DNA of 64,000 nucleotides from Alphaproteobacteria bacterium. Lineage in GTDB: Bacteria; Pseudomonadota; Alphaproteobacteria; RF32; CAG-239. Below, in pieces: positions 23,955 through 59,225 of this stretch. Both the position numbers and the translations under genes were made by a program. The DNA is taken from contig JAGBHO010000021.1 of assembly GCA_017935485.1 (NCBI GenBank), positions 2,479 through 66,478 of the forward strand. Direction: 5' to 3'. The number at the start of each line of letters is the position of its first letter. Position 1 is the first letter of the stretch. A model generated the notes under the pieces. The model saw only the letters and a list, made by a program, of their open reading frames with translations. It was not told the origin of the DNA and did no database searches.

Positions 23955-24428
<474 letters not shown>

Positions 24429-24446
24429 TCGAGGAGACAAAAGACA

Positions 24447-26522
24447 ATGGCTCGTACACATAAATTGGAAATGTACAGAAACATCGGTATTATGGCTCAC
24501 ATTGACGCCGGTAAAACAACGACTACCGAGCGTATTTTGTATTATACCGGTCAAAACCATAAAATCGGCGAAACCCATGACGGTGCCGCTACCATGGACT
24601 GGATGGAACAGGAGCAGGAGCGCGGTATTACAATTACCTCTGCTGCCACAACCTGTTTTTGGAAAGGCCATCGCGTTAATATTATTGATACTCCGGGACA
24701 CGTTGACTTTACTGTTGAAGTTGAACGTTCTTTGCGCGTGTTGGACGGTGCTATTACCGTATTTGACTCGGTTGCCGGTGTTGAACCTCAGTCTGAAACC
24801 GTTTGGAGACAGGCTGACAAATATGGCGTTCCGCGTATTTGCTTCTGCAACAAAATGGATCGTATCGGGGCAAACTTCTATCGCTGTCTGGAAATGATCA
24901 AAGACCGTCTGGGTGCACGCCCGATGGCTGTTCAATTGCCGATCGGCGCTGAAGCTGATTTTAAAGGAATTATTGATCTGATCAATATGAAAGCCGTTAT
25001 TTATACCGGCGATACTCCTGATTCTCCGATTAATGTCGTTGAAATTCCGGCGGAGTTCAAAGACAGAGCCGAAGACTATCATCATCAGCTGGTTGAAATG
25101 GCTGTCGAAGAAGATGAGCAGGCCATGGAAGATTATCTGGAAGGCAAAGAAGTTTCTGTCGAGACTTTGAAAAAATGTATCCGCAAAGGTACGATTGCTC
25201 AGGATTTTGTTCCGGTTCTGTGCGGTACCGCATTCAAGAACAAAGGTGTTCAGCCGTTGTTGGATGCTGTTATTGATTATCTGCCGTCTCCGGTTGATAT
25301 TCCTGCCGTTGAAGGCGTCAAGCCGGGAACTGACGAAGTTATCACCCGCAAGCCGTCTGACAACGAGCCGTTGTCCGCTTTGGCCTTTAAGATTATGAAT
25401 GACCCGTTTGTCGGTTCTTTGACTTTTACCCGTATCTATTCCGGTACAATGTCTGCCGGTTCTTATATCTATAACTCGGTTAAAGATAAGAAAGAACGCG
25501 TCGGCCGCATGTTGTTGATGCATGCCAATAAACGTGAAGAACTCAAAGAAGCCAACGCCGGTGATATTGTGGCTTTGGCAGGTTTGAAAGATACCACAAC
25601 CGGTGATACCTTGTGTGATCAGACTCATCCGATTGTTCTGGAAAACATGGAGTTTCCGGATCCGGTTATTGAGTTGGCCGTTGAACCGAAGACTAAAGCC
25701 GACGTTGAAAAAATGGGCCTGGCTTTGTCCCGTCTGGCTATGGAAGATCCGTCTTTCAAGGTTTCTTCCGATCCCGATTCCGGTCAAACCATTATTAAAG
25801 GTATGGGCGAATTGCACTTGGATATTATTGTTGACCGTCTGCGCCGCGAATTTAAAGTCGAGGCTAATGTCGGCGAACCGCAGGTTGCTTATCGCGAGAC
25901 CATTACCAAACCTTGTGATATTGAATATACTCACAAGAAGCAGTCCGGTGGTGCCGGTCAGTTTGCCAAGGTCAAAATCAAGTTTGAACCGATTGAAGGT
26001 TACAACGGTTTTGAGTTTGAAAACACTGTTGTTGGCGGTAATGTTCCGAAAGAATATATTCCGGGTGTTGAAAAAGGTTTGCGCTCGGCAATGGATGCCG
26101 GTGTATTGGCCGGATATCCGGTAACGGGTGTCAAAGCTACACTTTATGACGGTGCTTATCACGAAGTCGACTCTAACGTTATGTGCTTTGAAATTGCCGG
26201 ACGTGCCGCTTTCCGCGAAGGTATGCGCCAGGCCGATGCCAGACTGTTGGAGCCGATTATGAAGGTTGAAGTTGTTACCCCTGAAGAATATATGGGTGAT
26301 ATTATCGGTGACCTGAACTCCCGCCGCGGTTTGGTAAGCGGTATGGATCAGAGAGCCAATGCGCGCGTTGTTGATGCGAGCGTTCCTCTGGCCAACATGT
26401 TCGGTTATGTAAATACTTTGCGTTCTTTGTCTCAAGGCCGCGCTCAGTTTACAATGGTATTCGACCATTATGCCGAAGTACCGAGAGAAGTGGCTGAGAA
26501 GGTGAAAGCCAAAAACGCATAA
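24447..26522 (+). CDS. fusA: Elongation factor G
   Basis: [28 protein letters not shown] and NKMDR GTPase motifs, 691 aa. Confidence 0.98.
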
Positions 26523-26526
26523 TTTT

Positions 26527-26642
26527 CCATTTTAAGGGAAATCTAAAGCGGTTTTACGTGGTCGGTAAAAATTCATGTACGTTTGTGTACACTAAAATTT
26601 TTACCGCCACTAGAAACCATTTTATCTTCCTCCTTAAAAGTG
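26527..26642 (+). repeat. Long imperfect hairpin element, copy 1 (apex TGTAC-GTTTGT-GTACA at 26576-26591)
   Basis: Starts 5 nt after the fusA stop. I paired the arms by hand along about 50 nt each (for example GTGG(T)CGGTAAAAATT / AAATTTTTACCGCCAC). Homologous to the copies at 27889, 34741 and 44745. Confidence 0.8.
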
Positions 26643-26693
26643 AAAAATACTAACTCATTTTAATATATAATTTTTTATTTGGAGTAAATCTAA

Positions 26694-27884
26694 ATGGCAA
26701 AAGAGAAGTTTGAGCGGACGAAGCCGCACTGCAATATCGGAACAATCGGTCACGTGGACCACGGTAAAACGACATTGACGGCAGCGATTACGAAAGTATT
26801 GGCTGAAGAAGGCGGCGCCAGCTTTACAGCATATGATCAAATTGATAAAGCCCCGGAAGAGAAGGCACGCGGAATTACCATTTCTACGTCGCACGTAGAA
26901 TATGAGACACCGAACCGCCACTATGCGCACGTAGACTGCCCGGGTCACGCGGACTATGTTAAAAACATGATTACCGGTGCAGCGCAGATGGACGGTGCGA
27001 TTTTGGTAGTGAGTGCCGCCGACGGCCCGATGCCGCAGACGCGTGAACACATCTTGCTGGCCCGTCAGGTAGGCGTACCGGCATTGGTTGTTTACATGAA
27101 CAAAGTAGACCAGGTAGATGATCCGGAATTGTTGGAATTGGTCGAGATGGAAATTCGCGATCTGTTGAGTTCTTATGAATTTCCCGGCGATGAAATTCCG
27201 ATTATCAAAGGATCAGCCTTGGCCGTATTGGAAAACGGAGATAAAACGATCGGTCATGATTCAATCATTGAATTGATGAAAGCGGTAGACAGCTACATTC
27301 CGCAGCCGGATCGTCCGAAAGACAAACCGTTCCTGATGCCGATAGAAGACGTATTCTCAATTTCGGGCCGCGGTACGGTTGTTACTGGTCGTGTAGAACG
27401 TGGTGTTCTGCATGTAGGCGATGAAATTGAAATCGTAGGCATTAAACCGACGCAGAAAACAACATGTACGGGTATTGAAATGTTCCGTAAGTTGTTGGAT
27501 GAAGGCGAAGCCGGGGATAACATCGGTGTATTGCTGCGCGGCACGAAGAGAGAAGAAGTAGAGCGCGGCCAGGTATTGGCAGCACCAGGAACGATTACGC
27601 CGCACACAACGTTTAACTGCGAATGCTATATTCTGACGAAGGAAGAAGGCGGGCGTCATACACCGTTCTTCAGCAACTATCGTCCGCAGTTCTACTTCAG
27701 AACAACCGACGTTACGGGTTCGATCGAACTGCCTGAAGGTACAGAGATGGTCATGCCCGGTGATAACATCCGGATGACGGCCACGTTGATTCACCCGATT
27801 GCGATGAATGAAGGTTTGCGTTTCGCCATTCGTGAAGGCGGTAGAACAGTTGGAGCCGGAGTGGTTTCCAAAATTATAAAATAG
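26694..27884 (+). CDS. tuf: Elongation factor Tu
   Basis: [22 protein letters not shown] and NKVD motifs, 396 aa. Confidence 0.98.
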
Positions 27885-27888
27885 TGCT

Positions 27889-27972
27889 AAACGCCTTTCA
27901 TACTTGTTATTTTTCTTCTCGTGTATCTATGTTTACACTTCGTCGAAAAATAACGGCGTAGCAAAGGCATTT
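27889..27972 (+). repeat. Long imperfect hairpin element, copy 4 (short; apex GTGTA-N8-TACAC at 27921-27938)
   Basis: Starts 5 nt after the tuf stop. The arms AAACGCCTTTCATACTTGTTATTTTTC and GAAAAATAACGGCGTAGCAAAGGCATTT are complementary apart from a few mismatches. Confidence 0.7.
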
Positions 27973-27988
27973 ATCCCAATTTTAAGAA

Positions 27989-28021
27989 AAAGCTCTTTGC
28001 AGAGATGCAAAGAGCTTTTTT
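27989..28021 (+). terminator. Strong rho-independent terminator ending the str operon
   Basis: A 13 bp stem AAAGCTCTTTGCA / TGCAAAGAGCTTT, a 4 nt loop, then a T run. Confidence 0.9.
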
Positions 28022-30875: not shown

Positions 30876-31598
30876 ATGCGTACGGGTCTAATCGCAAAAA
30901 AGCTTGGAATGTCTCGTATTTTCGAGAGTGACGGAACTCATGTTCCCGTTACCGTTCTCAGCATTGAAGATTTGAAAGTCGTTGACGTTAAAACTCTCGA
31001 CAGGGATGGATATACAGCTGTACAACTTGGTACAGGCGCCATTAAGGCTAAAAATGTATCCAAGCCTCTGAAAGGACATTTTGCCAAAGCTAACGTTGAG
31101 CCTAAGAAAAAATTGGCAGAATTCAGAGTTTCTGAAGATTGTCTGCTTTCTGTAGGTGATGAATTATCTGTAGAACATTTTGTTGCCGGTCAATACGTTG
31201 ACGTTTGCAGCATCTCCAAAGGTAAGGGTTTTGCCGGTGTTATGAAGCGCCACAACTTTGCCGGTCTGGAGGCTACTCACGGTGTGTCTATTTCTCACCG
31301 TTCTCACGGTTCTACAGGACAAAGACAGGATCCTGGTAAGGTATTTAAAGGCAAGAAAATGGCCGGACATCTCGGTGACGAGCGTGTAACCGTTCAAAAT
31401 CTGAAGGTTGTTGCCACTGATGCTGCCAGAGGGTTGCTGATGGTTAAAGGCGGCGTGCCCGGCGGTGAAAATGCCTGGGTATATGTTACCGATGCCGTTA
31501 AAATCCCGAGCAAGGTTGAATTGCCGATGCCTGCAGGATTGAAGAAAGTTGATGAACCTGTTGCAGCTCAGGCTGAAACTCCGGCTGAAAATGCATAA
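30876..31598 (+). CDS. rplC: 50S ribosomal protein L3
   Basis: [13 protein letters not shown]...[14 protein letters not shown]... Confidence 0.98.
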
Positions 31599-34070: not shown

Positions 34071-34739
34071 ATGGGACAAAAAGTTAATCCTACAAGTCTT
34101 CGTCTGGGAGTTAACCGTACTTGGGATTCCCGCTGGTATGCCGATGAAAAGTATGCTGATTATCTGCACGAAGATTTGAAAATTAAAGAATTCTTGAAAG
34201 AGAAATTGGCTCAGGCCGGTGTAAGCAAGATTGTTATTGAACGTCCTGCCAAAAAGGCCAGAGTTACAATTCACTCTGCAAGACCGGGTGTCGTAATTGG
34301 CAAAAAGGGTCAGGATATTGAAATTCTGAGATCTCAGATTCAGAAGATGACTGATGCCGAAGTTCAATTGAACATTCTGGAAGTCAGAAAACCGGAGCTT
34401 GATGCTCAACTCGTAGCAGACAGCGTTGCTCAGCAGTTGGAACGCCGCGTTGCTTTCCGCCGTGCCATGAAGCGCGTTATGCAGTCTGCCCTGCGTTTGG
34501 GTGCTGAAGGTATTAAAGTCAGCTGTTCCGGCCGTCTCGGCGGTGCCGAAATTGCCAGAACCGAGTATTATCGTGAAGGTCGTGTTCCTTTGCACACATT
34601 GCGTGCTGACATTGATTATGCTACCTCTACGGCTCACACAACTTATGGTGCCTGCGGCGTTAAAGTATGGATCTACAAAGGCGAGATTATGGCTCATGAT
34701 CCTATGGCGCAGGATAAGAAGTTGGCTGAACAAAAATAA
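34071..34739 (+). CDS. rpsC: 30S ribosomal protein S3
   Basis: [13 protein letters not shown]...; KH and S3-C motifs. ATG at 34071. Confidence 0.98.
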
Positions 34740-34740
34740 T

Positions 34741-34869
34741 TATGAAGGGTTTTATGGCGCATCTAGAGCAGAAAATTCACTATCGAAAAAATTCATGTAC
34801 CTTTTTGTACACTAAAATTTTTTCTCAGTTCTTTTCTACTCTATCTATCACCCTAAAACCTCTACATAA
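34741..34869 (+). repeat. Long imperfect hairpin element, copy 2 (apex TGTAC-CTTTTT-GTACA at 34796-34811)
   Basis: Starts 2 nt after the rpsC stop. The left arm TATGAAGGGTTTTATGGCGCATCTAGAGCAGAAAA... pairs with the right arm ...TTTTCTACTCTATCTATCACCCTAAAACCTCTACATAA. It fills a 155 nt rpsC-rplP gap. Confidence 0.8.
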
Positions 34870-34894
34870 TGTATAGAAATAAGGTAAAGAATAA

Positions 34895-35320
34895 ATGTTA
34901 AGTCCAAAACGTATTAAGTTCCGCAAACAGCACAAAGGCCGTATTCACGGTTTGGCCAAAGGCGGATCAGAATTGAGTTTCGGTTCATACGGATTGAAAG
35001 CTCTTACACCGGATCGTATCACTGCTCGCCAAATCGAGGCTGCTCGTAGAGCTTTGACACGTGCGATGAAAAGAGCCGGAAGAATATGGATCCGAATTTT
35101 CCCGGATGTTCCCGTGTCGGATAAACCTGCCGAGGTTCGTATGGGTAAAGGTAAGGGCTCTGTTGAGTTCTGGGTTGCCCGTGTTAAGCCGGGTCGGATT
35201 TTGTTTGAAGCAGAAGGCGTTGACGAAGCAACAGCCCGCGAAGGTTTTGCCTTGGCTGCCGCCAAACTGCCGATTAAAACAAAGTTTGTTAAAAAATTAG
35301 CTTCAGAGCAAGGAGAATAA
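34895..35320 (+). CDS. rplP: 50S ribosomal protein L16
   Basis: [16 protein letters not shown]... Confidence 0.98.
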
Positions 35321-39262: not shown

Positions 39263-39448
39263 ATGTCAGCAAATAAAACTATTAAAGTTACTCAAATCAG
39301 AAGCGCGGTTAATCGTCCGGCTGATCAGGAAGCCACCCTTAAAGGGCTGGGCCTGAACAAAATGCATAAAGTATCGGTTTTGGAGGATACTCCTTCGGTA
39401 CGCGGGATGATTAAAAAAGTGGCTCACTTGGTTAAAGTTGAAGAGTAG
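39263..39448 (+). CDS. rpmD: 50S ribosomal protein L30
   Basis: A 61 aa protein with IKVTQIRS...TLKGLGL... Confidence 0.96.
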
Positions 39449-39513
39449 TCCGGTGGCCGGCAAAAGTTTTATGTTTGTCGGCACCTAACTCCGATTATTT
39501 AAGGTGAATAGAT

Positions 39514-39966: not shown

Positions 39967-39992
39967 CCAGAAAGCAGAAAAGCAATTTGATG

Positions 39993-40022
39993 AAAAGGCG
40001 GGATAATTGTTCCGCCTTTTTG
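39993..40022 (+). terminator. Rho-independent terminator directly after rplO
   Basis: Stem GGCGG / CCGCC with a 10 nt loop, an A run before it and a T5 run after it. Confidence 0.7.
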
Positions 40023-40048
40023 TGTTTGTAAAATTTTGTCAAAAATGC

Positions 40049-40077
40049 TTGCCGCAGACGTAAAAATATGATATGGT
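40049..40077 (+). promoter_or_regulatory. Sigma70-like promoter TTGCCG-17-TATGGT
   Basis: Hexamers at 40049-40054 and 40072-40077, upstream of the small ORF at 40143. Confidence 0.45.
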
Positions 40078-40142
40078 ATTTCCAATGTTAAATTATTTTG
40101 AGAATTACTAATCGGGGCAAAGCCCCATAAAAATTAAAAAAT

Positions 40143-40337
40143 ATGGAAAGATTAGAAAAAATTTTTACTGTTGCATTGGTTATTGCGATGATGGGCGTTG
40201 TAATATTTTGGGCTGCCGGCTTTAACGGCCACATGGATGTAGCCCAAGGGTCATTGATTACAGCCGGTGTTTCATGCTGGGTGGCTTTGGTCAGTATCGG
40301 ATTGCGAAAACTCCGCCAGAGGAATTGTTGGTATTAA
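40143..40337 (+). CDS. Hypothetical small two-TM membrane protein (64 aa)
   Basis: Two hydrophobic helices (FTVALVIAMMGVVIFWAAG; LITAGVSCWVALVSIGL). It has its own promoter-like and terminator signals, but no SD. Confidence 0.5.
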   Translation: MERLEKIFTVALVIAMMGVVIFWAAGFNGHMDVAQGSLITAGVSCWVALVSIGLRKLRQRNCWY

Positions 40338-40355
40338 TGGCTTTCCATAAGATAA

Positions 40356-40385
40356 AAAACGGTTTCATTTGAAGCCGTTTTTTTG
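40356..40385 (+). terminator. Rho-independent terminator
   Basis: Stem AACGGTTTC / GAAGCCGTT (one G-U pair) followed by T7. Confidence 0.7.
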
Positions 40386-40487
40386 TTTGCAGCAATTTTA
40401 CGGTCAAATTGTTTTTCCTCTGTTTATACTCCGATTTTTTATAGAGAGTGATGAGGCAATCTGAATTCGCCGAGGTTTTTTATTGCA

Positions 40488-40521
40488 GATGCCGTTATGT
40501 AAAAAAACGGCATCTTTTTTG
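40488..40521 (+). terminator. Orphan rho-independent terminator upstream of secY
   Basis: Stem GATGCCGTT / AACGGCATC followed by T6. There is no ORF between it and the previous terminator. Confidence 0.65.
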
Positions 40522-40672
40522 TGTATTCGGGATAATTTAAGGAATCTGTTTATTCTTATGGTGTAAATGGATAATTTTGTTGAATTAAATTTTTTTTCGT
40601 GTATAACTAGCTTAGTTTAAAAGGGAAAATTTCCCTTGCTTGGTTGTTTAAAAATAAAATAAGGAAGTAAAA

Positions 40673-42749: not shown

Positions 42750-42777
42750 TTGACACTAAAATTTTTTGGCATATAAT
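42750..42777 (+). promoter_or_regulatory. Sigma70-like promoter TTGACA-16-TATAAT of the alpha operon
   Basis: Consensus hexamers at 42750-42755 and 42772-42777. Confidence 0.7.
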
Positions 42778-42847
42778 CCGCCTTAATTTTGAAGAGTGGT
42801 GATCAACTTTTTGAATGTGGTAAATTTTTTTAAAATGGAGAGTTAAT

Positions 42848-43216
42848 TTGGCTCGTATAGCTGGTGTAAATATCCCAACTGCCAAGAAAATTGAAGTCGC
42901 ATTGACTTATATTTTCGGTATTGGAAGAAAAACTGCTCAAGACATTTGTGCAAAAACCGGAGTTTCCGGCGATCGTCGCGTTCAGGATCTGAGCGAAGAC
43001 GAGATTGCCAAAATCCGTGAAGAAATTGATTCAAACTGCCTCGTTGAAGGCGAATTGCGCCGTGAAGTAGGTGTTAATATTAAAAGACTGATGGATCTCG
43101 GCTGCTACAGAGGCTTGAGACATCGTAAAGGTTTGCCGGTACGCGGACAGAGCACTAAACAAAATGCCAGAACCCGCAAAGGCAAACGTAAAACTGTCGC
43201 TAACAAGAAAAAATAG
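42848..43216 (+). CDS. rpsM: 30S ribosomal protein S13
   Basis: (M)ARIAGVNIP... TTG start after GGAGAG. Confidence 0.97.
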
Positions 43217-43732: not shown

Positions 43733-44743
43733 GTGATTCAAAAGAATTGGCAAGAACTTATTAAACCTACGAACTTAGAAGTTGTTCCCAGTGAGGGCGG
43801 CAGCAAGGCTAAAATTGTGGTTGAACCTCTGGAGCGGGGTTTCGGATTAACTTTGGGTAACGCGCTGAGACGCGTTTTGCTGTCTTCTCTGCAAGGCGGC
43901 GCCGTAACCGCTATCAAAATTAACGGCGTACTTCACGAGTTTTCCGTTATTCCGGGTGTCAGAGAAGATGTTACAGATATCGTCCTGAATATTAAGGGTT
44001 TGGCTGTGGCTGTTCACGGCGAAGGCCCGAAGACGATGACTTTGAAGGCTGAAGGTCCTTGTGAGGTTACCGCACAGATGATTGAAACCGGTCATGATGT
44101 TGAAATTAAGAATCCTGACCATGTTATTTGTAATCTGGATGCCGGTGCTAAAATTAATATGGAGCTGACGGTTAATACCGGTAAAGGTTATGTGCCGGCG
44201 TTCCAGAACAAAGCCGCTGACGCCCCGATCGGATTGATTGCCGTAGATGCAATTTATTCTCCGGTTAAAAAGGTTTCTTACAAAGTTGAGAATACCCGCG
44301 TCGGCCAGGTTACCGACTATGACAAACTGACGCTGGTTGTTGAGACCAACGGTGTTGTTTCTCCGGAAGATGCGGTTGCTTTGGCTGCAAGAATCCTGCA
44401 GGATCAGTTGAAACCGTTTATTAACTTCGATGAGCCGGAAAGTGAAGTTGAAGTTGAAAAAGAAGAGCTGCCGTTCAACAAAAACCTGCTTAAAAAGGTT
44501 GAAGAGCTTGAATTGTCCGTTCGCTCTGCCAATTGCCTTAAAAATGACAACATTGTTTATATTGGCGATTTGGTTCAGAAAACCGAAGCGGAAATGCTCA
44601 GAACGCCGAACTTCGGCAGAAAATCTTTGAACGAAATCAAAGAAGTTTTGGCAAAAATGGGGATTCATCTCGGTATGGATACGCCGGGTTGGCCGCCTGA
44701 AAATATTGAAGAGCTGATTCGTCGTATTGACGAACACTTTTAA
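43733..44743 (+). CDS. rpoA: DNA-directed RNA polymerase alpha subunit
   Basis: (M)[11 protein letters not shown]... N-terminus from the GTG at 43733 after AGAGGA. C-terminal domain [11 protein letters not shown]. The ORF track extends to a TTG at 43715. Confidence 0.97.
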
Positions 44744-44744
44744 T

Positions 44745-44862
44745 GACTTGTATAACGGTCATCTAATGCAGATTTAGCGGGTCGGAGAAATGCTCATGTA
44801 CTATTTTGTACATTCCGCTTTCTCTGCCCTAAAATCTTATTATATGCCTCATTCTCCAAGTC
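44745..44862 (+). repeat. Long imperfect hairpin element, copy 3 (apex TGTAC-TATTTT-GTACA at 44797-44812)
   Basis: Starts 2 nt after the rpoA stop. The arm GACTTGTATAACGGTCATCTAATGCAGATTTAGCGGGTCGGAGAAA pairs with ...TTTCTCTGCCCTAAAATCTTATTATATGCCTCATTCTCCAAGTC. Confidence 0.75.
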
Positions 44863-44983
44863 ATTCCCTGTAATTGGGAGATTAATTTCTCCATGCATGA
44901 ATGTGAAAACAAATCCGTGGTGGAGATGAACGTTTTATCCGCTTTGCCCCGCAAAGCACAGAGAAAAAGAAAGGAAATATGTC

Positions 44984-45470: not shown

Positions 45471-45480
45471 ATTACATGCC

Positions 45481-45780
45481 TTACAGAAAAACCCGAGTTT
45501 ACTCAGGGCTGAATGCCAAGGTGCCGTTAGACACCGTTCCACGCCAACGAGCGTGGTCAAACCGTAAGGTTTGTAGCTGATTAGCCCCCCAGGTTACTGG
45601 GGGATATCTATGGTTCGAACGTAACACTACCTGCGTTAGCAGGCAGATGTAAATATACCAGCCCAGCCGTTAGGTTTGCGGAGCCTTTGGGCTGGGTGAA
45701 CGAAGTTCGGAATGGTTAATACCACTTGCGTAAGCTGGTGGAAGTTTATGTTGATGTATCACAGGCTCCCTTTCCACTTT
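45481..45780. ncRNA. Candidate structured non-coding RNA of unknown class (about 300 nt); strand unresolved
   Basis: No ORF of 60 aa or more is listed in the supplied six-frame track. It looks more GC-rich by eye than its AT-rich right flank. At least eight local hairpins are present: 45492-45508, 45520-45535, 45539-45556, 45559-45572 (GTAA loop), 45586-45603, 45630-45643, 45658-45695 and 45722-45741 (GTAA loop). A possible 7 bp pseudoknot joins 45680-45686 and 45763-45769. Confidence 0.45.
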
Positions 45781-46074
45781 ATTGGGGTATATCTATTCTG
45801 AAAAATAAATTTTCCAATCCAAAATTATTTTTATTTTTAAAGTCGCTTATTTGTAGGTTTATAAACAAAAGTTTTATAATTTTATGATAAATCTTATATG
45901 TTATGAGGGTTTGTTGAGCTTTTGTGTCAAAAATATACGCAAATTGTAATTTTTTGTTGTTTTTAGTTCTATAAAATAAATTTAAGTTTATTTTTAAAGT
46001 TGACAAATTTTGTTTTTTATATAATTTTTGATTGTTGTAAATTTTTACTTCTTTTAGAAGTTTCAGGGGGTATA

Positions 46075-46278
46075 ATGGTTGGAAGAATTAAATGGTTTGA
46101 TGTTGCAAAAGGATATGGTTTTATTATTCATGAGGAAACCAAGCAGGAATTTTTTCTGCATATCTCACAATTGGAAAAGATCGGATTTAAATATTTGAAA
46201 GAAGGTCAAAAGGTCAGTTTTGACTTATATGATGACAAAGGCAGAGTTGCTGCAGGAAATATTAAGATTTTGTATTGA
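46075..46278 (+). CDS. Cold-shock domain protein (CspA family)
   Basis: GRIKWFDVAKGYGFI (RNP1-like) and FFLHIS (RNP2-like). ATG at 46075 after AGGGGG. 67 aa. Confidence 0.92.
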   Translation: MVGRIKWFDVAKGYGFIIHEETKQEFFLHISQLEKIGFKYLKEGQKVSFDLYDDKGRVAAGNIKILY

Positions 46279-52508: not shown

Positions 52509-52656
52509 GTGAAAAAACGCCGATTCGATTTCTAAAAGCCGCGGAAAACCATATAAAATAAAAGATATTTTAACTAAATCCGGTTATAATTTTATTTAAT
52601 CAGAAAAATTTTTGACCGAAAACGTATTTTTTTAGATTAATTTGACAAAAAAGTTG

Positions 52657-52685
52657 TTGAAATATTCTGAAAAATGCGTTATTAT
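52657..52685 (+). promoter_or_regulatory. Sigma70-like promoter TTGAAA-17-TATTAT
   Basis: Embedded in TTGACAAAAAAGTTGTTGAAA. A near-identical motif precedes the paralog at 55743. Confidence 0.5.
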
Positions 52686-52719
52686 CGCGTCAAATAGAAT
52701 TTTGTTAGGAGTTTTTAAG

Positions 52720-55593
52720 ATGGCTATTGATGCTCAAAATGCAATTCGGGCGATTAATGATGGAAAATATGAAGTGTTTTCCAATGACGATTTGATTAAT
52801 TTGGCCAAAATTTTGCCGGCTGCCGGAAAAGAAGGCGCTGAAGCTTTTGCCAAATTGAAGGATTTTGTCGGAACAAATTTGATGGCGCCGTTTGCCGAAG
52901 GTATTTATCAACTCAATCCCAAAGACATGGATGTTTTTGAGGAACTGGTTAAAATTTACGGCAAGGGCGCGGACGGCAAGGTTATTAAAGGCATGACCAG
53001 CGGCAAAACCGTGCAGGAGGCTTTTGATGTTTATAAAAAGCTTAATGACGTTAACGTTGATGCCAAGACGATTGAAAATAATGCCGCCAAGCTTGAGGCG
53101 TTTGAGCAAAAGCATGATATTGCGGACAGCAAATTTGAGTCAAACGGCCGGAAGCTTCTTGACAGAATGGATATTGACAAAGATACAAAGGCAGACGTTT
53201 TGGAAGCCGTCAGACTGAATGCTTATACGGACAGTTTGGTTGACGGAAAACTTGACGAGGCCAAATATGTCGAGAATTTGAAGAGCAATATCGAGCTGGC
53301 CGTTTACAGCATGCTGACCGGTACTGCCATTTCAAAAGCCGGTGCGGAAGCCAACAAGTCTTTGGACATGTCCATTAAGGCGACTTTGGAACAGGCTGTT
53401 GCTGTTACGGATAAAGAAAACAGCATGCTTAAAGTTAACGGCGATGCCGTTATGGGTTATCTGGCGACAACGCTGGACCGAACAGAAAGTATTAAAGACC
53501 GCATTAAGAATAAGCTTGGCAATATTCCGGTATTGGCCAAACTGAACAAGAAAATTTCGCAGTTGGATGATAAATTCTCCAAAAAATACGGCAAGCGTTA
53601 TGAGGTTGCCAAGACGGCGGTTAAGGTTGTTTCCAATATCGGCGCAGGTGGTCTGATGTTGTGCGCTGCAGGTGGTTTGGGTCCGGTCGGTCTGGCGGCA
53701 TACGGTGTTTATGCTTCTTATAACGGTATGAAACCGATGGTTCAGTCTTGGAAAAACAGCCGGAAAGAGTATAAGTCATTCGGCGCTTTTCTGAAAGATA
53801 ACAAGCTGAATGCCCTGACCGCAGTTTCCGGCGTTCTGGCGTTGGGTGTGGCCGGTTATAATGCCGGAAATGCCGCTTTGCAGGTTGCCGGAGGACAATT
53901 GAATTCGGCAACGGTAAGTCCTCTGCTCGGATATGCCAGCAAAACGCGCGCAACGCTTGCTTATGGTACGGTTGCCCTGAAAAATGCCGTTGATATCAAA
54001 GATGCATACAATAAGGGTGAAGGCACAGGGAAAGCTTGGGCAAAAGCCGGGTTGACGGCGCTGGCGTTTGTTGTGAACTATCATCTGGCCGGTGCATTCC
54101 AAGCAGATTCTAATGTTTCCGAGAAAAGCGGTCTGACTTTGCCGGACGGCAGAGATTTGAATGAGGCAAAAGTCGATTCTGCCGCTCAAAACAGCGTGGC
54201 TGAGGATTCCACACAAGTTTCCGACGGTGCGGATACAACGACAACAGCCGGTACGGAACAAGATCCGTGCGAGGAGATTGAAAATGCTTTGCATGGCAGT
54301 CAGCAGCAGAGTGCAGAACAGAATGTCGATGACGGCGACTGCAACGGCAAGATTGAGGCTCAGGCCAGAGACCATACCCTGCATACAGAGTTTTGGGACA
54401 ACCGTAACCGTCACTTCCTCGGTGATGATTTGACCAATGCTTTGTACGGCCTGTTTGAAGGCGACAAGCCGGTTTTGAATTTGAATGATTTTGAAGGCAT
54501 TGATAACAAAGAAGAATTTGTTTATAAATATGCCATTATGAAGGCTAATAACATTCCCGAGCAGCAGATTTTGGTCGATATGATTGAGAAAGCCTGCGGC
54601 GGCCAGTTGACGCAGAATGATTATATTGATATTGCCCGCGGCATGAACTCGTATGACAATCACGGTAATCCGCTGTGCTGGGAAAATACGCAGAATACCG
54701 GCGGTACCAGACTGGCTGACGATTTTGTCCGCTGCGATCCGGAACCGACCAAGCCGGAACCGGCTGATGTTGTTCCCGTAACTCCGGTTAATCCGGAGCC
54801 TGTTGAACCTGAGCCGACAGAGCCCGTTCAACCCGTTGAACCCGTACAGGAGGCAGAACCTGCCAAGATTTACAAGGGTAAGATTGTTGAACATGTTACG
54901 CTTGACAATGTTCCGCAGGATAAGATTAAAGGTTATGATTATGACTTTTATGATGCGCCTATTCCCGAGAAAGAAGCCGCACAGGGTTATGATTATGACG
55001 TTGACGGCAACAAAGGCGAGCCCGCTCCGACACTTGAGGCCGATGCCGTAGCCGGAAAAATTGCGATGGCGAACGGCGGCAAGGTTGAATATACCTTTTA
55101 TAACGGTGCAGCACAAATTCAGTATGAAATGCCGGAAGACAAATATGCCGATGAAGTGGCTGCCCATTTGGAAGGTTTTACCGACAAGCCGGAAACAATG
55201 TCCCGCCGTTATGCGGCTTACAGCGAGGTTTATTATGACCTGCACAGCCGTCTGGCCGAAGGCGAAACCATTAAAGGCGCCGAGGAATGGATGGATTGGA
55301 TGGATAAGCACTTGGCCAAACGCGGTTTGTTTATTGATGACAAAGGTTATATTGCCATTAATCAGAATGTTGACCGTGAGCTGTTGCTGGAAGCTTATCG
55401 TAAAGATCCGGACGGTCTGATGACGGACAAAGAAATGCGTCAGCTTGAAAAAGAGACCGAAAAAGCCGAGAAACAGGCTGCCAAGGAAGCTGCCAAAGCG
55501 GAAAAAGAAGCCGCCAAAGAAGCAGCAAAGGCTGAGAAAGAAGCTGCAAAAATGGCTAAAATGAAAGCTAAAAGCAACAGTTGGGATTATTAA
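52720..55593 (+). CDS. Giant hypothetical membrane protein A (957 aa), paralog of the next gene
   Basis: ATG at 52720 after AGGAG. No signal peptide. Gly/Ala-rich hydrophobic core at about 53620-54100. P/E/V-rich linker at about 54738-54860. C-terminal KEAAKAE repeats. Confidence 0.85.
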   Translation: MAIDAQNAIRAINDGKYEVFSNDDLINLAKILPAAGKEGAEAFAKLKDFVGTNLMAPFAEGIYQLNPKDMDVFEELVKIYGKGADGKVIKGMTSGKTVQEAFDVYKKLNDVNVDAKTIENNAAKLEAFEQKHDIADSKFESNGRKLLDRMDIDKDTKADVLEAVRLNAYTDSLVDGKLDEAKYVENLKSNIELAVYSMLTGTAISKAGAEANKSLDMSIKATLEQAVAVTDKENSMLKVNGDAVMGYLATTLDRTESIKDRIKNKLGNIPVLAKLNKKISQLDDKFSKKYGKRYEVAKTAVKVVSNIGAGGLMLCAAGGLGPVGLAAYGVYASYNGMKPMVQSWKNSRKEYKSFGAFLKDNKLNALTAVSGVLALGVAGYNAGNAALQVAGGQLNSATVSPLLGYASKTRATLAYGTVALKNAVDIKDAYNKGEGTGKAWAKAGLTALAFVVNYHLAGAFQADSNVSEKSGLTLPDGRDLNEAKVDSAAQNSVAEDSTQVSDGADTTTTAGTEQDPCEEIENALHGSQQQSAEQNVDDGDCNGKIEAQARDHTLHTEFWDNRNRHFLGDDLTNALYGLFEGDKPVLNLNDFEGIDNKEEFVYKYAIMKANNIPEQQILVDMIEKACGGQLTQNDYIDIARGMNSYDNHGNPLCWENTQNTGGTRLADDFVRCDPEPTKPEPADVVPVTPVNPEPVEPEPTEPVQPVEPVQEAEPAKIYKGKIVEHVTLDNVPQDKIKGYDYDFYDAPIPEKEAAQGYDYDVDGNKGEPAPTLEADAVAGKIAMANGGKVEYTFYNGAAQIQYEMPEDKYADEVAAHLEGFTDKPETMSRRYAAYSEVYYDLHSRLAEGETIKGAEEWMDWMDKHLAKRGLFIDDKGYIAINQNVDRELLLEAYRKDPDGLMTDKEMRQLEKETEKAEKQAAKEAAKAEKEAAKEAAKAEKEAAKMAKMKAKSNSWDY

Positions 55594-55620
55594 TCTTCTT
55601 AAAAAAACTCCTGACAAAAG

Positions 55621-55660
55621 AGAAAGAGCTGCAGAGAAATCTGCGGCTCTTTTTCTTTTG
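55621..55660 (+). terminator. Rho-independent terminator between the paralogs
   Basis: Stem AAGAGCTGCAG / CTGCGGCTCTT (one G-U pair) followed by a T run. Confidence 0.75.
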
Positions 55661-55755
55661 GCATCAGGCTCTTAATGAATAATTTAAGTTTTATCGCTAT
55701 GATTGAGATAAATGTTACATTACTGTTAATATCGTCTTTTTGTTGACAAAAATTG

Positions 55756-55820: not shown

Positions 55821-58800
55821 ATGGCTGATGAATCTAATGTATTGACCCAGGAACAGAGGGATTTTTATGAGAATGAAACCGGCAAGCCTTTGCCGGAAGG
55901 AGCAACCTGGGATTCTCTGGATGGGGAACAAAAAGCCGTTCTCAGCGATGTTTATGCTCCCAAAAGCGCGGAAGCCGAGGAATATGCCGGCAAGTTCAAA
56001 GAGCCGGAGCAGGAAGCGGCCGTGATTGAGCAAAAAGAGCCGATGAAGCTTGAGGATGCGATTAATGCCGCGGATGGCAAAGAATTGTATAATCTGAATC
56101 CGAACGATTTAGCCGAGATGAACAATGTGCTGCGGACAGCGGCAGCAGAGGGCAATGAAGCTGCGGTGCTCGGTTACGGAAAAGTCCGGCTGGCCATGGA
56201 AGAAAAAATGCAGGCCTATGCCAACGGCGAAATTGAAACGCCGATAGAATGGGCCGGCGGGATGCAGGCCATGCTGCGGGCGGCGAAAGAACGCCTGCCG
56301 GAAAAAGAGCCTTATCAGGAAGAACCGATTACCGGCATGCATACGGTGACGGCGCAGAATATTTCTAATGACAAAGATAAGAATTTGGATGACCTCAGCC
56401 TGCATGACCTGGCGGCGTTGAAAGTCGAAATGGACAAGAATCCGGAAGGTTTTGACAAGCAGCGCGTTGACGAGGCCGTCGGCCATCGTTTGAATAAGCT
56501 TGCGTCAATGGGGAAAAATGATTTTATTGCGAAGGAAGATTTGGCGGCGGCGCAGGTTTTGCTTGACGCCATTCCGATGTCAAACCGTCGGGAAAGCGCC
56601 GGCAAAGCTTTTGAGGTTTTTACCAAAGTAGAGGGCAAACTGTATGACTCCCGCAAGGTTGTCAACGGAACTTTTGACGAGCCGCGGATTGCCGAGCTGG
56701 CCGAAGCCTGTGAGGGAAAGCTGAAAGAGTTTACCGAGGCTTATGACAAAGAGCACGGCTTGTCGATGATGACTTCGGAAGATGCCGAGCGGGTTTCGGA
56801 GAATATTGCCGCCATGAGCGAAATGGGCAAAGACGCTCTTGACAAGGCGGAATATAAAGAAGAACCGATCAAGCCGATGTCGAAAGACGAGGCTGAGAAA
56901 GCAATGGCCGAGTTGCGGCAGGGCAAAGATTTTGACATGAAAACGCTGGCGTCTTTGTCGGCTTCCAATGCTTTTGGCACAATGGGGCCGGATGCTGAGG
57001 CGCTGGAAAAGGCGATTGCCGCTAAACTGACCAAGGTCGGCAAGGAAGTTCCGGCCGATGAGCTGGGCAGCATGGATTTTCTGCTGGAGAAGGCTTCGCA
57101 CCTGCCGGAGTCAATGTTTCCGGCCAAGAAGTATGAGAAAGCCAAGGGTATTTTAGACAAGAACCGGAAAGAGGCTCAGAAGAATCCGAAGCCGAAGCAT
57201 CCGGAAATGGCTGATGCCATGGCGCTGTTTGACAATCTGGAGATTACGGACGGCGTTAAGATGTTCAGCAAGGCCAAGAGCAAGGATAGTGACGAATTAA
57301 AGGCGCAGTTGCTGGAGAGTATCCGTCTGCAGACGATGGAAAGCATGGCCGGTACCAAACCGGGGCCGATTGATCCGGCAGAATTTAATAAGGAATTTGC
57401 CGCGAATATCGTGGCGGAGGTCGGCAGGCTGGCCGGTGTCGAGAGCGTGATTGCCGGCGGCAGCAAGGCGATTGAAGATTATGCCAAAGGTCACAAGATT
57501 CAGGTTGGAAAAGGGGCGCTGTTAGGGTATTTGGCGGCACAGAGCGACGCGCGCGAGGGTTTTGCCGCCCGTCTGGAGAGCAAGGTCGGAAAGGGTAATG
57601 CCGGTGTTGCAAAACTGCGGGAACAAGGTAAGAGTCTGGATGACAAGACAGCTAAAAATGCAGCACCCAAGCAGTATGCGATGCTTAAATCTCTGGCCAA
57701 GACTGCAGCGTGGTCGGGAGCGTATTATGCTGCCGGAGCAGTTTGCGGTCCGGCCGGTATAGCGGTTGTGGCAACGGCGTCTTTGGCGAATCAGGCCTTG
57801 AAGCTGCGCAAGGAATATAAGAAGAAAAAAGAAGAAATGGCCAAAAAGGGCAAGAAACTCAAGCTTTGGTCTTTCTTAAAAAACAATAAAATGGCTTTGG
57901 CCGGCGCGGCAATGACGGCTCTCGGTATTGGAGCGGCCGGTATTGAAGCAGCCGAGTTGGTTCCGGAAGTGGCCAGAGCGATGACAAATGCCAAAGCAAC
58001 GTCAGGAATTGCGCTGGGTATCGGTTCAACCATCAAAGCCTTCAGGGAAGTGCGAAAAAACGGCGGCAGTATGTGGAAAGCGATGGGCGCGGCCAGTGTG
58101 GCCGGTGCCGGTACGGCCTGGGCCGTGATTTCCGGAGCCACATCATCATTTGATTCTCCGGCGATTGAAGGGGAAGGAACCATTGCCGCTCATATTAATT
58201 GGGGAGAACATAGTTCTTATGGACCGGAACATCCGACAATGTCGGAGATTGAAACAGCAAATTCAGTGACTCCGGCGATGGTTGATGAAAATAACAATGG
58301 TATTTCAGATTATATTGAGCGGCCGGCCGAACAACAGACGCCGCCGATGTTGGATAAGGATAATGATGGCATTTCCGATTATATAGACCGTGACGGTGGC
58401 GAGGGCTGGGCGAATGAGCCGGAAAAACCGGCGGTTGAGCAGGAAGCTCCGGTACAGGAGACCCCGTTGCAGGAGCCGGTTGTTCAGCAGGAATCCGAGG
58501 AACGTCCGGATTGGGCTTCCCAGCCGCTGGAAGCCGGTGCGATTGCCGGTCTTGAAACCGAGCAGCCGGATATTGCCGGCGTTAATGAGCAAATGCAGGC
58601 TCAGGCAGAGGCAAACAAAATATACGGCGTGCAGGATCCGGTCAGCGGCAAGACGTTAGAGTTTTCTCTGGGTGACAATGGGGAAATCCAGACTCATAAT
58701 GCCGAGGAAATCGGGTTGGTGGGAAGTGAGCAGCTTCATGGCGCCGTTGCCGAAAGGATTAGTCAGGAAGCCGGTCATTTCAGCGACAGGGAACTGGCTT

Positions 58801-59225
58801 TTCTGGAGAAGAATCTGTCCGGCGAGCAATACAGCGACGTTATGTTGGCCGATGCGCAGATAAGAGCGGAGCAGGATACACAGTTGTTGGCACAGGAGGC
58901 TGAAAAGACTTTCGGAAATCCGCAAGATGTTCATACGGCCGAACAGTCTATGGCGGACAATCAATCGGCGGCAGCAGGGAAACCAGATGTCGAGAAGCTG
59001 AATGAGGAGCTGCAGTCGATGGTTCATGGCGATAAAGCAGCCGAACAGCAGCCGCAGGAACTTTCAAAGGCCGAAAAGCTGGAAGCGCTCAGACAGGGTA
59101 AAAGCGTGGAAGAAGCCACGGCGGCAAAATCTGCTTCCAAAGAGCCGATAATGGCACAGAACATTAACAGGGTGCAAACGCCCATTAACAGTGTAGACCC
59201 GCGCGGCGGCGGATACACAGCCTAA
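55821..59225 (+). CDS. Giant hypothetical membrane protein B (1134 aa), paralog of gene A
   Basis: SD GGAG. Alignable with A by eye (GALLGYLAAQSDAREGF vs DAVMGYLATTLDRTESI; FLKNNKMALAGAAMTALGIGAAG vs FLKDNKLNALTAVSGVLALGVAG). Hydrophobic core at about 57700-58140. Two DxDxDGISDYI repeats. Confidence 0.85.
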   Translation: MADESNVLTQEQRDFYENETGKPLPEGATWDSLDGEQKAVLSDVYAPKSAEAEEYAGKFKEPEQEAAVIEQKEPMKLEDAINAADGKELYNLNPNDLAEMNNVLRTAAAEGNEAAVLGYGKVRLAMEEKMQAYANGEIETPIEWAGGMQAMLRAAKERLPEKEPYQEEPITGMHTVTAQNISNDKDKNLDDLSLHDLAALKVEMDKNPEGFDKQRVDEAVGHRLNKLASMGKNDFIAKEDLAAAQVLLDAIPMSNRRESAGKAFEVFTKVEGKLYDSRKVVNGTFDEPRIAELAEACEGKLKEFTEAYDKEHGLSMMTSEDAERVSENIAAMSEMGKDALDKAEYKEEPIKPMSKDEAEKAMAELRQGKDFDMKTLASLSASNAFGTMGPDAEALEKAIAAKLTKVGKEVPADELGSMDFLLEKASHLPESMFPAKKYEKAKGILDKNRKEAQKNPKPKHPEMADAMALFDNLEITDGVKMFSKAKSKDSDELKAQLLESIRLQTMESMAGTKPGPIDPAEFNKEFAANIVAEVGRLAGVESVIAGGSKAIEDYAKGHKIQVGKGALLGYLAAQSDAREGFAARLESKVGKGNAGVAKLREQGKSLDDKTAKNAAPKQYAMLKSLAKTAAWSGAYYAAGAVCGPAGIAVVATASLANQALKLRKEYKKKKEEMAKKGKKLKLWSFLKNNKMALAGAAMTALGIGAAGIEAAELVPEVARAMTNAKATSGIALGIGSTIKAFREVRKNGGSMWKAMGAASVAGAGTAWAVISGATSSFDSPAIEGEGTIAAHINWGEHSSYGPEHPTMSEIETANSVTPAMVDENNNGISDYIERPAEQQTPPMLDKDNDGISDYIDRDGGEGWANEPEKPAVEQEAPVQETPLQEPVVQQESEERPDWASQPLEAGAIAGLETEQPDIAGVNEQMQAQAEANKIYGVQDPVSGKTLEFSLGDNGEIQTHNAEEIGLVGSEQLHGAVAERISQEAGHFSDRELAFLEKNLSGEQYSDVMLADAQIRAEQDTQLLAQEAEKTFGNPQDVHTAEQSMADNQSAAAGKPDVEKLNEELQSMVHGDKAAEQQPQELSKAEKLEALRQGKSVEEATAAKSASKEPIMAQNINRVQTPINSVDPRGGGYTA

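Follow-up and report, generated by a model that had tools for sequence, protein, structure and literature searches.

Long palindromic repeats placed at stop codons in uncultured gut Alphaproteobacteria: a probably mobile family transcribed with its host genes

A 64,000-nucleotide stretch of contig JAGBHO010000021.1 of an alphaproteobacterium (assembly GCA_017935485.1; this whole stretch is hereafter called the window) carries four long imperfect hairpins in the intergenic gaps of its str, S10 and alpha ribosomal-protein operons. An earlier note had proposed that the four are one family selected for its RNA structure, and had offered three possible roles for it: an RNase III-type processing or stability element, an operator for feedback by a ribosomal protein, or a domesticated palindromic MITE (miniature inverted-repeat transposable element). 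The question raised by this locus is thus what kind of element has settled behind the stop codons of such genes, and whether it acts there as RNA or as DNA. Among the options offered, the palindromic MITE came closest to the data described below.

The four stretches were folded and compared with dinucleotide shuffles (n = 200), and each turned out to be one long imperfect hairpin on the + strand. Copy 1 (26520..26650, +, long type) fills the gap between fusA and tuf; its palindrome takes in the fusA stop codon (26520-26522), its outer arms occupy 26520-37 and 26632-49, and its apex, TGTAC-N6-GTACA, lies at 26576-26591. Copy 2 (27882..27985, +, short subtype) reaches from the tuf stop codon (27882-27884) to an intrinsic terminator at 27987-28020, with an apex formed by GTGTA (27921-25) and TACAC (27934-38), which reads TGTA-N8-TACA. 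Copy 3 (34737..34871, +, long type) runs from the rpsC stop codon (34737-34739) towards the rplP start at 34895 and has its apex at 34796-34811, while copy 4 (44741..44867, +, long type; apex 44797-44812) lies 3' of rpoA, whose stop codon is at 44741-44743. RNA fold energies were -42.6, -26.4, -32.6 and -40.3 kcal/mol for copies 1 to 4, corresponding to z-scores of -7.5, -5.5, -6.2 and -7.0, and 0/200 shuffles were as stable as the native sequence in any case, so the hairpins are real. They had been said to start 2-5 nt after the upstream stop codon, which had to be corrected for copies 1, 3 and 4, since their palindromes reach into the stop codon itself. Sliding-window minimum free energy and Lfold scans for long hairpins were uninformative, with each window at about -35 kcal/mol, and a blastn comparison of the window with its own reverse complement missed all four hairpins owing to their mismatches.

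That the four are homologous was established with a covariance model (R1) built from 26 members of the main subfamily, a seed which includes copies 1 and 3 and excludes copy 4. Run over both strands of the window with filters off, R1 returned exactly these four copies, all on the + strand: copy 1 (101.2 bits, 26519-26650), copy 3 (101.2 bits), copy 4 (66.6 bits) and copy 2 (21.2 bits, E = 0.01; nhmmer E = 5.7e-5), the next-best match being an unrelated hairpin with E = 0.057. For the motif TGTAC-N6-GTACA the window has 4 occurrences where 0.43 would be expected; the apices of copies 1, 3 and 4 account for three, and the fourth lies inside an open reading frame (ORF; 30876-31598) downstream of rpsJ. 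Copy 2 is not the compensated variant that it had been taken for, but a member of a shorter subfamily, whose homologues in loci L014, L011 and L024 (relatives' and metagenome loci are designated here by L numbers) have the TGTAC-N6-GTACA apex; in copy 2 the inner C:G pair has become T.T and an outer G:C pair has been gained. All four copies lie within the ribosomal-protein gene cluster (23.5-45.4 kb) and are 35-64% identical to one another, and only copy 4 contains anything like a promoter, a weak 9-of-12 consensus match. The four hairpins are therefore copies of one homologous family of palindromic repeats.

This family extends well beyond the window. Using nhmmer and the covariance model, members were found in the window and in its close relatives (L001-L026), which are metagenome-assembled genomes of uncultured gut Alphaproteobacteria that were recovered from human, Hadza, roe deer and rumen material and bear the label 'Alphaproteobacteria bacterium' or 'uncultured Azospirillum sp.'; the group probably corresponds to the GTDB order RF32. 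The nearest of these relatives, L007, shares about 90% nucleotide identity with the window, and L008-L026 share 72-85% over the ribosomal-protein cluster. The relatives' loci were first gathered by an RplP scan of species-representative genomes and were all ribosomal-protein regions; a profile search of them gave about 30 more members, all on the operon strand, in gaps that vary by species (upstream of rpsJ, rpmD-rplO, rplO-secY, rpoA-rplQ and 3' of tuf). No members were found in 23 ribosomal-protein loci of more distant Alphaproteobacteria, and as far as sampled the family is confined to a group of uncultured gut Alphaproteobacteria. An unbiased scan was provided by metagenome contigs searched for the exact apex motif TTCATGTAC-N6-GTACACTA, which gave at least 120 loci, from human gut among others; the metagenome-derived copy counts and upstream-gene lists that follow are those among the matches listed. 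Among these, nhmmer gave at least 131 matches at E <= 0.01, R1 confirmed at least about 105 sense-strand copies in the first 100 metagenome loci, tandem arrays of 2-4 copies were frequent, and many record names say human gut metagenome. Members are of two types, long (about 125-135 nt) and short (about 90-105 nt), and their orientation is unambiguous because R1 scores drop by about 80 bits when a copy is read on its reverse strand. Viral contigs gave 32 exact apex matches, in which nhmmer aligned the apex alone; a phage origin suggested by these matches was rejected, as they are apex-only and at chance level.

The genes that precede the element were annotated with Pfam for 30 non-redundant cases. 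They serve translation and RNA turnover (EF-Tu, EF-G, IF-2, RRF, RsfS, L9, L25, YqeY and PNPase), include chaperones and proteases (GroES, with groEL next, FtsH and a Lon-like protease) and enzymes of central metabolism (pyruvate phosphate dikinase, AdhE, PGK, GpsA and FabI), and extend to envelope and other functions (MreB, PBP1, a KdsB-like protein, an autotransporter, FlhB, pol III delta, a TPR protein and a ParB-like protein) as well as to two large subunits of phage terminases in apparent prophages. At least 20 of these upstream genes are unrelated to ribosomal proteins. The family thus has no special tie to ribosomal-protein operons, and the link seen in the window is a by-product of a bias to highly expressed genes.

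What the copies do share is their position and orientation. The upstream gene could be identified for 98 of the 112 unique elements and pointed the same way in 93 of them, with 5 opposite; the downstream gene was co-oriented in 76 cases and convergent in 14. Counted from the stop codon, the apex centre lies 57-67 nt downstream in most of the 80 cases measured. In a 48-nt class the ORF enters the element for about four codons and ends on a stop within the 5' arm, usually the TAA of a conserved CGTATAAnGG motif (AdhE, GroES, PGK, pol III delta); behind rplO of L020 the stop is a TAG at the equivalent position. The inverted repeat begins at the T of the stop codon in 23/65 unique copies and within the stop codon in 43/65, and most copies that start within the stop codon have 5'-TA(A/G)...(T/C)TA-3' termini. 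Starting where they do, the elements must be transcribed together with the gene before them. On the 5' side, copies have nothing in common except TAA or TAG, which any base may precede. The type of stop codon (TAA 62, TAG 16, TGA 2, against 417, 160 and 43 in the background) was rejected as a clue to the target, usage being the same as in the background, where TGA is rare as well. Three further ideas about the site were set aside: a 3' flank that is an inverted copy of the gene's last codons was seen in one tuf-site element (L133, L224), with a mean score of 5.9 vs 5.4 in controls; a target duplication in the form of a directly repeated stop codon fits 1/41 cases; and a reading frame through the element, in the manner of MIRU or YPAL, is stop-free in 43% of copies vs 24% of shuffles, with frames that vary.

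Comparison of orthologous gaps revealed that elements have been acquired, lost and replaced. The rpsC-rplP gap measures 15-23 nt in 18 relatives and 152-155 nt only in the window and L007; because the site is empty in those 18 relatives, copy 3 is an insertion, as had been supposed. In L008 the same gap is 115 nt long and holds an unrelated hairpin. The companion claim that such gaps are normally short was borne out for rpsC-rplP but not for rpoA-rplQ, where the gap is 231-415 nt in all relatives; there, the site of copy 4 contains family members in L007, L013 and L014 and an ordinary terminator in L008, L009, L010, L015 and L022. In the L007 orthologues of copies 3 and 4 the arms are kept and the small apical hairpin differs. 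The 3' side of tuf was found in three states among strains whose flanks share about 93-99% identity. The window and L001 have only copy 2; L002 and L006 have an additional long-type element of 141 nt that separates copy 2 from the stop codon; and L003-L005 have an altogether different element. In L002 (2679-2712) and L006, the 5' arm of copy 2 has been replaced by 34 nt without a C after the first three bases (GCCTTGAGGTGAGAGAGGTGTTTTGTGTGTTGTT), and the hairpin has been lost (z = -1.3). Moreover, 95%-identical copies stand behind unrelated genes in two pairs of loci, L230 (pol III delta) with L120 (KdsB-like), and L139 with L148, and in both pairs the adjacent tandem element was copied too. 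Most between-locus pairs are about 64% identical (median 64%) and copies in the same genome only 35-64%, so most copies are old. Taken together, these identities indicate that the family is old and has at times moved recently.

The tuf site offered a further observation. In L001 (3001-4355), tuf follows SIS, SpoU and ABC genes, not fusA, while tuf, copy 2 and the terminator match the window at 97.8% over 1355 nt, which suggests that gene conversion between two tuf loci may have reached past the stop codon.

With a probability of about 0.6, we read the family as MITE- or REP-like (REP, repetitive extragenic palindrome) mobile palindromic DNA that is co-transcribed with its host gene. An element would insert at, or a few bases to either side of, the stop codon of a gene, pointing as the gene and the leading strand do. 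Copies would then stay singly or in tandem and be gained, lost or replaced among close strains, with the mRNA carrying a predicted imperfect hairpin of 40-55 bp right behind the ORF. Spread may proceed via a folded single strand, as the strict strand bias and the asymmetric apex and lower-stem features described below would suggest, and in the mRNA the resident hairpin might be cut by RNase III or hold back 3' exonucleases, thereby uncoupling operon segments. Set against the case that had been put forward as refuting selection on structure, a plain MITE, the data are mixed: dozens of copies at many loci were indeed found, but in a single orientation and with compensatory changes in their arms.

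Several findings weigh against this interpretation. There is no family-wide terminal inverted repeat, the outer arms pairing within each copy and differing between copies; terminal pairs such as AAAGTTCG/CGAACTTT, AGGGTAAAA/..CCGCCT and TGACTTG/CAAGTCA are conserved within subfamilies only. The most conserved part is the apex, the reverse of a classical MITE or a REPIN. A target-site duplication was not demonstrable, because the TA termini are self-complementary and a TA duplication thus looks the same as a longer palindrome; in 6/9 clear cases no stop codon is restored by the base that follows the 3' TA. Pfam revealed no transposase near the window copies, and tblastn with an approximate IS200 TnpA query, a weak test over 2.3 Mb of the collected loci, gave a best E of 0.12; nor was a full-length insertion sequence with matching ends seen in those loci. 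The low identity of same-genome copies, most of them old, points the same way. Lastly, purifying constraint on resident copies is unexpected of purely selfish DNA, and the rpmD-rplO slot, which always has a hairpin whether of the family or not, speaks for a need at the level of the host. These last two points bear directly on the strongest of the rival explanations.

According to this rival, the element is a cis-acting RNA selected by the host behind the stop codons of highly expressed genes, where, as a target of RNase III or an obstacle to 3'-to-5' exonucleases, it might set the relative stability of operon segments or prevent ribosome coupling to the next cistron, duplication being merely how it spreads. 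The placement described above, with 95% of copies co-oriented with the upstream gene and starting at its stop codon, speaks for it, as does the strong bias of upstream genes to high expression (tuf, fusA, infB, frr, rplI, rplY, groES, ppdk, adhE, pgk, pnp, ftsH). The pairing of the arms was evaluated on a stop-codon-anchored alignment of 26 copies of a single subfamily (A2), which replaced an earlier MAFFT alignment of 14 mixed copies (A1) whose arms were out of register and in which RNAalifold saw the apex only. The A2 consensus contains 35 pairs in 4 helices, with both-sided change at 22 pairs. Of its cells, 90.7% are paired vs 76.4% in shuffles and 32-60% with slid partners, there are 126 double-change cells vs 35 in shuffles, and 0/500 shuffles reach the native value in any of five measures. 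The covariation of the arms that had been read by eye is therefore genuine.

A rate for this constraint was obtained from nine groups of orthologous copies in close strains. Paired positions showed 0.016 states per site, other unpaired positions 0.101 and the apical loop 0.107, while in the upstream gene of the same strains the values were 0.077 for third codon positions and 0.011 for first and second positions. Paired positions thus change about 6 times more slowly than unpaired ones, a contrast inflated up to about 2-fold because a single member of each group supplied the structure; even so, pairing has clearly been maintained after insertion. Their rate resembles that of first and second codon positions and the rate of unpaired positions resembles that of third positions, again in keeping with a host-selected RNA. 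Strain-level changes comprised one double vs eleven single, and the pairing of the arms could also be kept by template-switch correction between them. Beside these rates, we noted that two tuf 3' elements (L129 and L133) have identical 5' arms and differ at 5/6 bases of the apical loop (GATAGT vs TGACGT); in its behaviour the loop is a hypervariable point in the middle of the palindrome.

The same rival gains from the gap between rpmD and rplO, in which all 20 relatives keep a hairpin at or beside the stop codon although the sequences are unrelated. Eight of these are short-type members of the family. The other twelve, that of the window included (39446..39490, +, directly 3' of the rpmD stop codon), are unrelated to it and mostly G+C-rich, have no U-run and fold with z-scores of -2.6 to -5.8. 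Either palindromes collect in this slot as at a hot spot, or a hairpin is wanted in it. The non-family hairpin in the rpsC-rplP gap of L008 is a further point of this kind.

Other data do not favour an RNA role. In a strand-neutral alignment of arm against arm, G.U and A.C appositions were about equally frequent (254 vs 218), so the wobble bias expected of RNA is absent, and mismatches on the sense strand are mostly pyrimidine-pyrimidine (494, vs 116 purine-purine). Folding favours the antisense over the mRNA strand in 80/98 copies overall and in 4/4 of the window (antisense -52.2, -33.2, -54.4 and -43.7 kcal/mol for copies 1 to 4, against the sense values given above), DNA energy parameters give the same ranking, and part of this antisense advantage stems from a conserved asymmetric anatomy. 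Furthermore, most relatives lack the element at the same sites, L002 and L006 have lost the copy 2 hairpin, and the bias to one replication strand is at least as strict as that to transcription. Of the original proposal, that RNA structure and not a recent burst accounts for the family, the constraint on pairing stands; no RNA-specific signature accompanies it, and the RNA roles proposed, possible as they still are, get no support from the strand-symmetry data. A host-selected RNA is for these reasons a tentative alternative, and on balance a doubtful one.

The asymmetric anatomy and the strand bias bring in a second rival, namely that the element works as single-stranded DNA folded on the lagging-strand template, either as DNA on which an HUH/Y1 enzyme acts, as in REP-RAYT or IS200/IS605 systems, or as a strand-specific priming or processing signal, with transcription incidental. 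Conserved C.U and A.C mismatches flank the apex (TCA-TGTAC...GTACA-CTA) and persist where the adjoining pair covaries (CACGTAC...GTACGC), and the lower stem keeps ATCTAGAGC opposite CTCTATCTA; the invariant columns lie in the apex and at ATCTAGAGC. Conservation of this kind speaks for a single folded strand, of RNA or DNA, as the thing recognised, and not for a symmetric duplex. A duplex site of the CRP/NtcA type (TGTA-N8-TACA) was considered for the apex and set aside, as it leaves the long arms and the conserved asymmetry unexplained.

As for the strand, the sense strand of the element is the G-rich strand in 46/47 loci of at least 4 kb, and over all loci 84/84 copies lie on the G-rich strand, which would put the sense strand on the lagging-strand template. 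Within the window the + strand keeps a positive GC skew even through stretches whose genes lie on the minus strand, so skew here reflects replication. Copies were found behind 55/640 leading-strand genes and 0/84 lagging-strand genes (p = 0.0015), a comparison to be read with the facts that the gene calls come from a crude codon-usage caller trained on the window, and hence on leading-strand genes, which under-calls those of the lagging strand, and that the leading strand carries nearly all highly expressed genes, which confounds replication with transcription. The lack of an RNA-specific wobble bias agrees with a DNA substrate as well, and the lagging-strand template is a known target of IS200/IS605 elements (PMC5027513, PMC6006769). 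What does not fit is the single long hairpin in place of two subterminal ones, the absence of a fixed 4-5 nt target beyond TAR, the failure to see a Y1 transposase in the weak tblastn test mentioned above, and the abutment on stop codons, which this mechanism alone leaves unexplained. A purely single-stranded DNA element is in our judgement unlikely.

The two lines of evidence might be combined in a further reading, which we consider more speculative still and improbable: the family would be single-hairpin DNA that seeks stop codons, its asymmetric apex (TCA-TGTAC-N6-GTACA-CTA) being read by a dedicated protein that sets it behind the stops of highly transcribed leading-strand genes, possibly where the non-template strand is exposed as ribosomes leave the transcript, and the host would have come to depend on post-stop hairpins to partition its operon mRNAs. 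If true, it would explain both the constrained pairing and slots that are always filled, such as rpmD-rplO.

A feedback operator for ribosomal proteins, or an intrinsic terminator or attenuator of the str, S10 and alpha operons, as the location of all four window copies in the ribosomal-protein cluster had suggested, can be dismissed as highly improbable: an operator is excluded because the same element follows dozens of unrelated genes (adhE, ppdk, pgk, groES, mreB, ftsH, autotransporter and phage terminase genes among them), the occupied sites within the cluster differ between species, the copies lie away from what we take to be the known S7, L4, S8 and S4 operator sites, and Rfam had no match to the window that reached gathering score and no match to the hairpins even at E <= 1, while a terminator is contradicted by A+T-rich stems (G+C 0.31-0.38) followed not by a T-run but by ATACTAAC, TGTATAG or TTCCCTG, by a consensus scan that calls none of the four, by the separate canonical terminator 10 nt beyond copy 2, and by copy 3, 25 nt upstream of rplP with no promoter between, where efficient termination would silence the rest of the operon.

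Mobile palindromic DNA, co-transcribed with the gene that it follows, therefore remains our preferred reading, and the family matters in several respects. Palindromic repeats are common in bacteria, and how they choose their sites and what use their hosts make of them are largely open questions. The present family gives clean rules (one orientation, a position at the stop codon, a conserved apex, and arms that diverge fast yet stay paired) together with measurable constraint in natural strain variation, which makes site choice and host use testable in closed genomes and gut metatranscriptomes. The element also lengthens the spaces between genes of core operons in an uncultured gut lineage, can change the last codons of proteins, and will mislead the prediction of operons, terminators and small RNAs in these genomes.

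Other features of the window deserve mention. Upstream of rplQ and downstream of copy 4, a structured segment (44890-44983) reads TCTCCATGCATGAATG...CCGTGGTGGAGA, then GTTTTATCCGCTTTGCCC.GCAAAGCACAGAGAAA; it has no Rfam match and is conserved in the window, L007, L009, L014 and L022 whether the palindrome is present or not, and is a candidate leader or own promoter region of rplQ (L17). Between the rplQ terminator and a cold-shock gene (46000-46278), about 330 nt (45480-45810) are G+C-richer, highly structured and non-coding, with no Rfam match at E <= 1 and no tRNA or tmRNA, and represent a candidate structured RNA. The rplO-secY gap (39967-40672) measures 706 nt in the window and 120-1494 nt in relatives; in the window it contains three terminator-like hairpins with T-runs and possibly a small ORF, and in L019 and L020 it begins with a member of the family. 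Upstream of rpsM (region 42750-42880), a perfect sigma-70 consensus promoter (TTGACA-16-TATAAT, 42750-42777) is followed by a sub-threshold Rfam match to Alpha_RBS (25.6 bits, E = 0.024). Two ORFs, 52642-55593 (983 aa) and 55821-59225 (1134 aa), are strongly coding and have no Pfam domain, and the gap between them opens with a near-perfect 26-bp hairpin (55610-55668, z = -6.5) with no T-run after it. A 712-aa ORF on the minus strand (24330-26468), antisense to fusA (691 aa), is non-coding by codon usage and misleads gene calling based on length.

We found no earlier description of this family in the literature searched, and it is apparently undescribed, so it has to be placed by comparison with known systems. 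Correia, ERIC, RUP and RPE elements are 100-200 bp long, often have 5'-TA-3' termini and give long stem-loop transcripts; some bacterial MITEs fuse to reading frames or affect mRNA decay, NEMIS being processed by RNase III and ERIC having orientation-dependent RNase E effects (PMC2229807). Like Correia/NEMIS, ERIC/IRU and YPAL (100-170 bp; PMC2229807; PMC2649163), the present family is non-coding, dispersed and folded end-to-end into an imperfect hairpin, apparently often with 5'-TA...TA-3' termini, is co-transcribed with its neighbours, and is present or absent between strains. It occurs as a small dispersed unit in 4 copies in the window, about 30 in relatives and at least about 105 in metagenomes, and some copies give the upstream gene its last codons and stop, as YPAL and RPE do. 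It has no sequence similarity to those MITEs, whose conserved parts are terminal inverted repeats, whereas here the apex is conserved and the termini vary; it is essentially single in orientation (93:5 by gene, 84:0 by strand) and tied to the stop codon, its apex following 57-67 nt on, and neither a TA duplication nor a partner transposase is known for it. The palindromic repeats of Rickettsia (RPE) are likewise alphaproteobacterial, 100-150 bp long and tolerant of contact with reading frames (PMC2229807); they insert in frame inside genes and are translated, while members of this family, in which no similarity to RPE was seen, lie at or after the stop codon and have stops in all three sense frames in 57% of copies.

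REP/BIME and REPIN sequences are also multicopy extragenic palindromes, often in 3' regions inside operons, with pairing maintained (PMC3116915, PMC8266576), and they are thought to move as single-stranded DNA and persist vertically for long in a lineage (PMC3116915, PMC8266576). A REPIN has two conserved REP arms around a variable spacer and forms a near-identical population, the reverse of a conserved centre with diverging arms (median 64% identity), and the GTAG head shared by REPs is absent here. With IS200/IS605 the family shares a strand bias that fits the lagging-strand template (84/84, confounded with gene orientation) and the want of clear terminal inverted repeats or duplications (PMC5027513, PMC6006769), and recognition of folded DNA instead of duplex sequence is plausible for it too; in those elements a separate subterminal hairpin lies at either end and insertion occurs 3' of a set tetra- or pentanucleotide, whereas here there is one hairpin and the shared sequence is a stop codon (TAA/TAG). 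Integron attC sites have conserved R and L boxes at the hairpin base, a variable apex and cassette arrays beside an integrase; here the apex is conserved and the neighbours are core genes in conserved order. On the mRNA strand, the predicted stems of 40-55 pairs, which contain internal loops, are long enough for the roughly two or more helical turns of double-stranded RNA that an RNase III site needs. We did not assign the family to any named one, since it departs from each on a defining test. In kind it stands closest to bacterial MITEs that fold over their full length and share transcripts with neighbouring genes, and the nearest mechanistic models are REPIN/RAYT and IS200/IS605.

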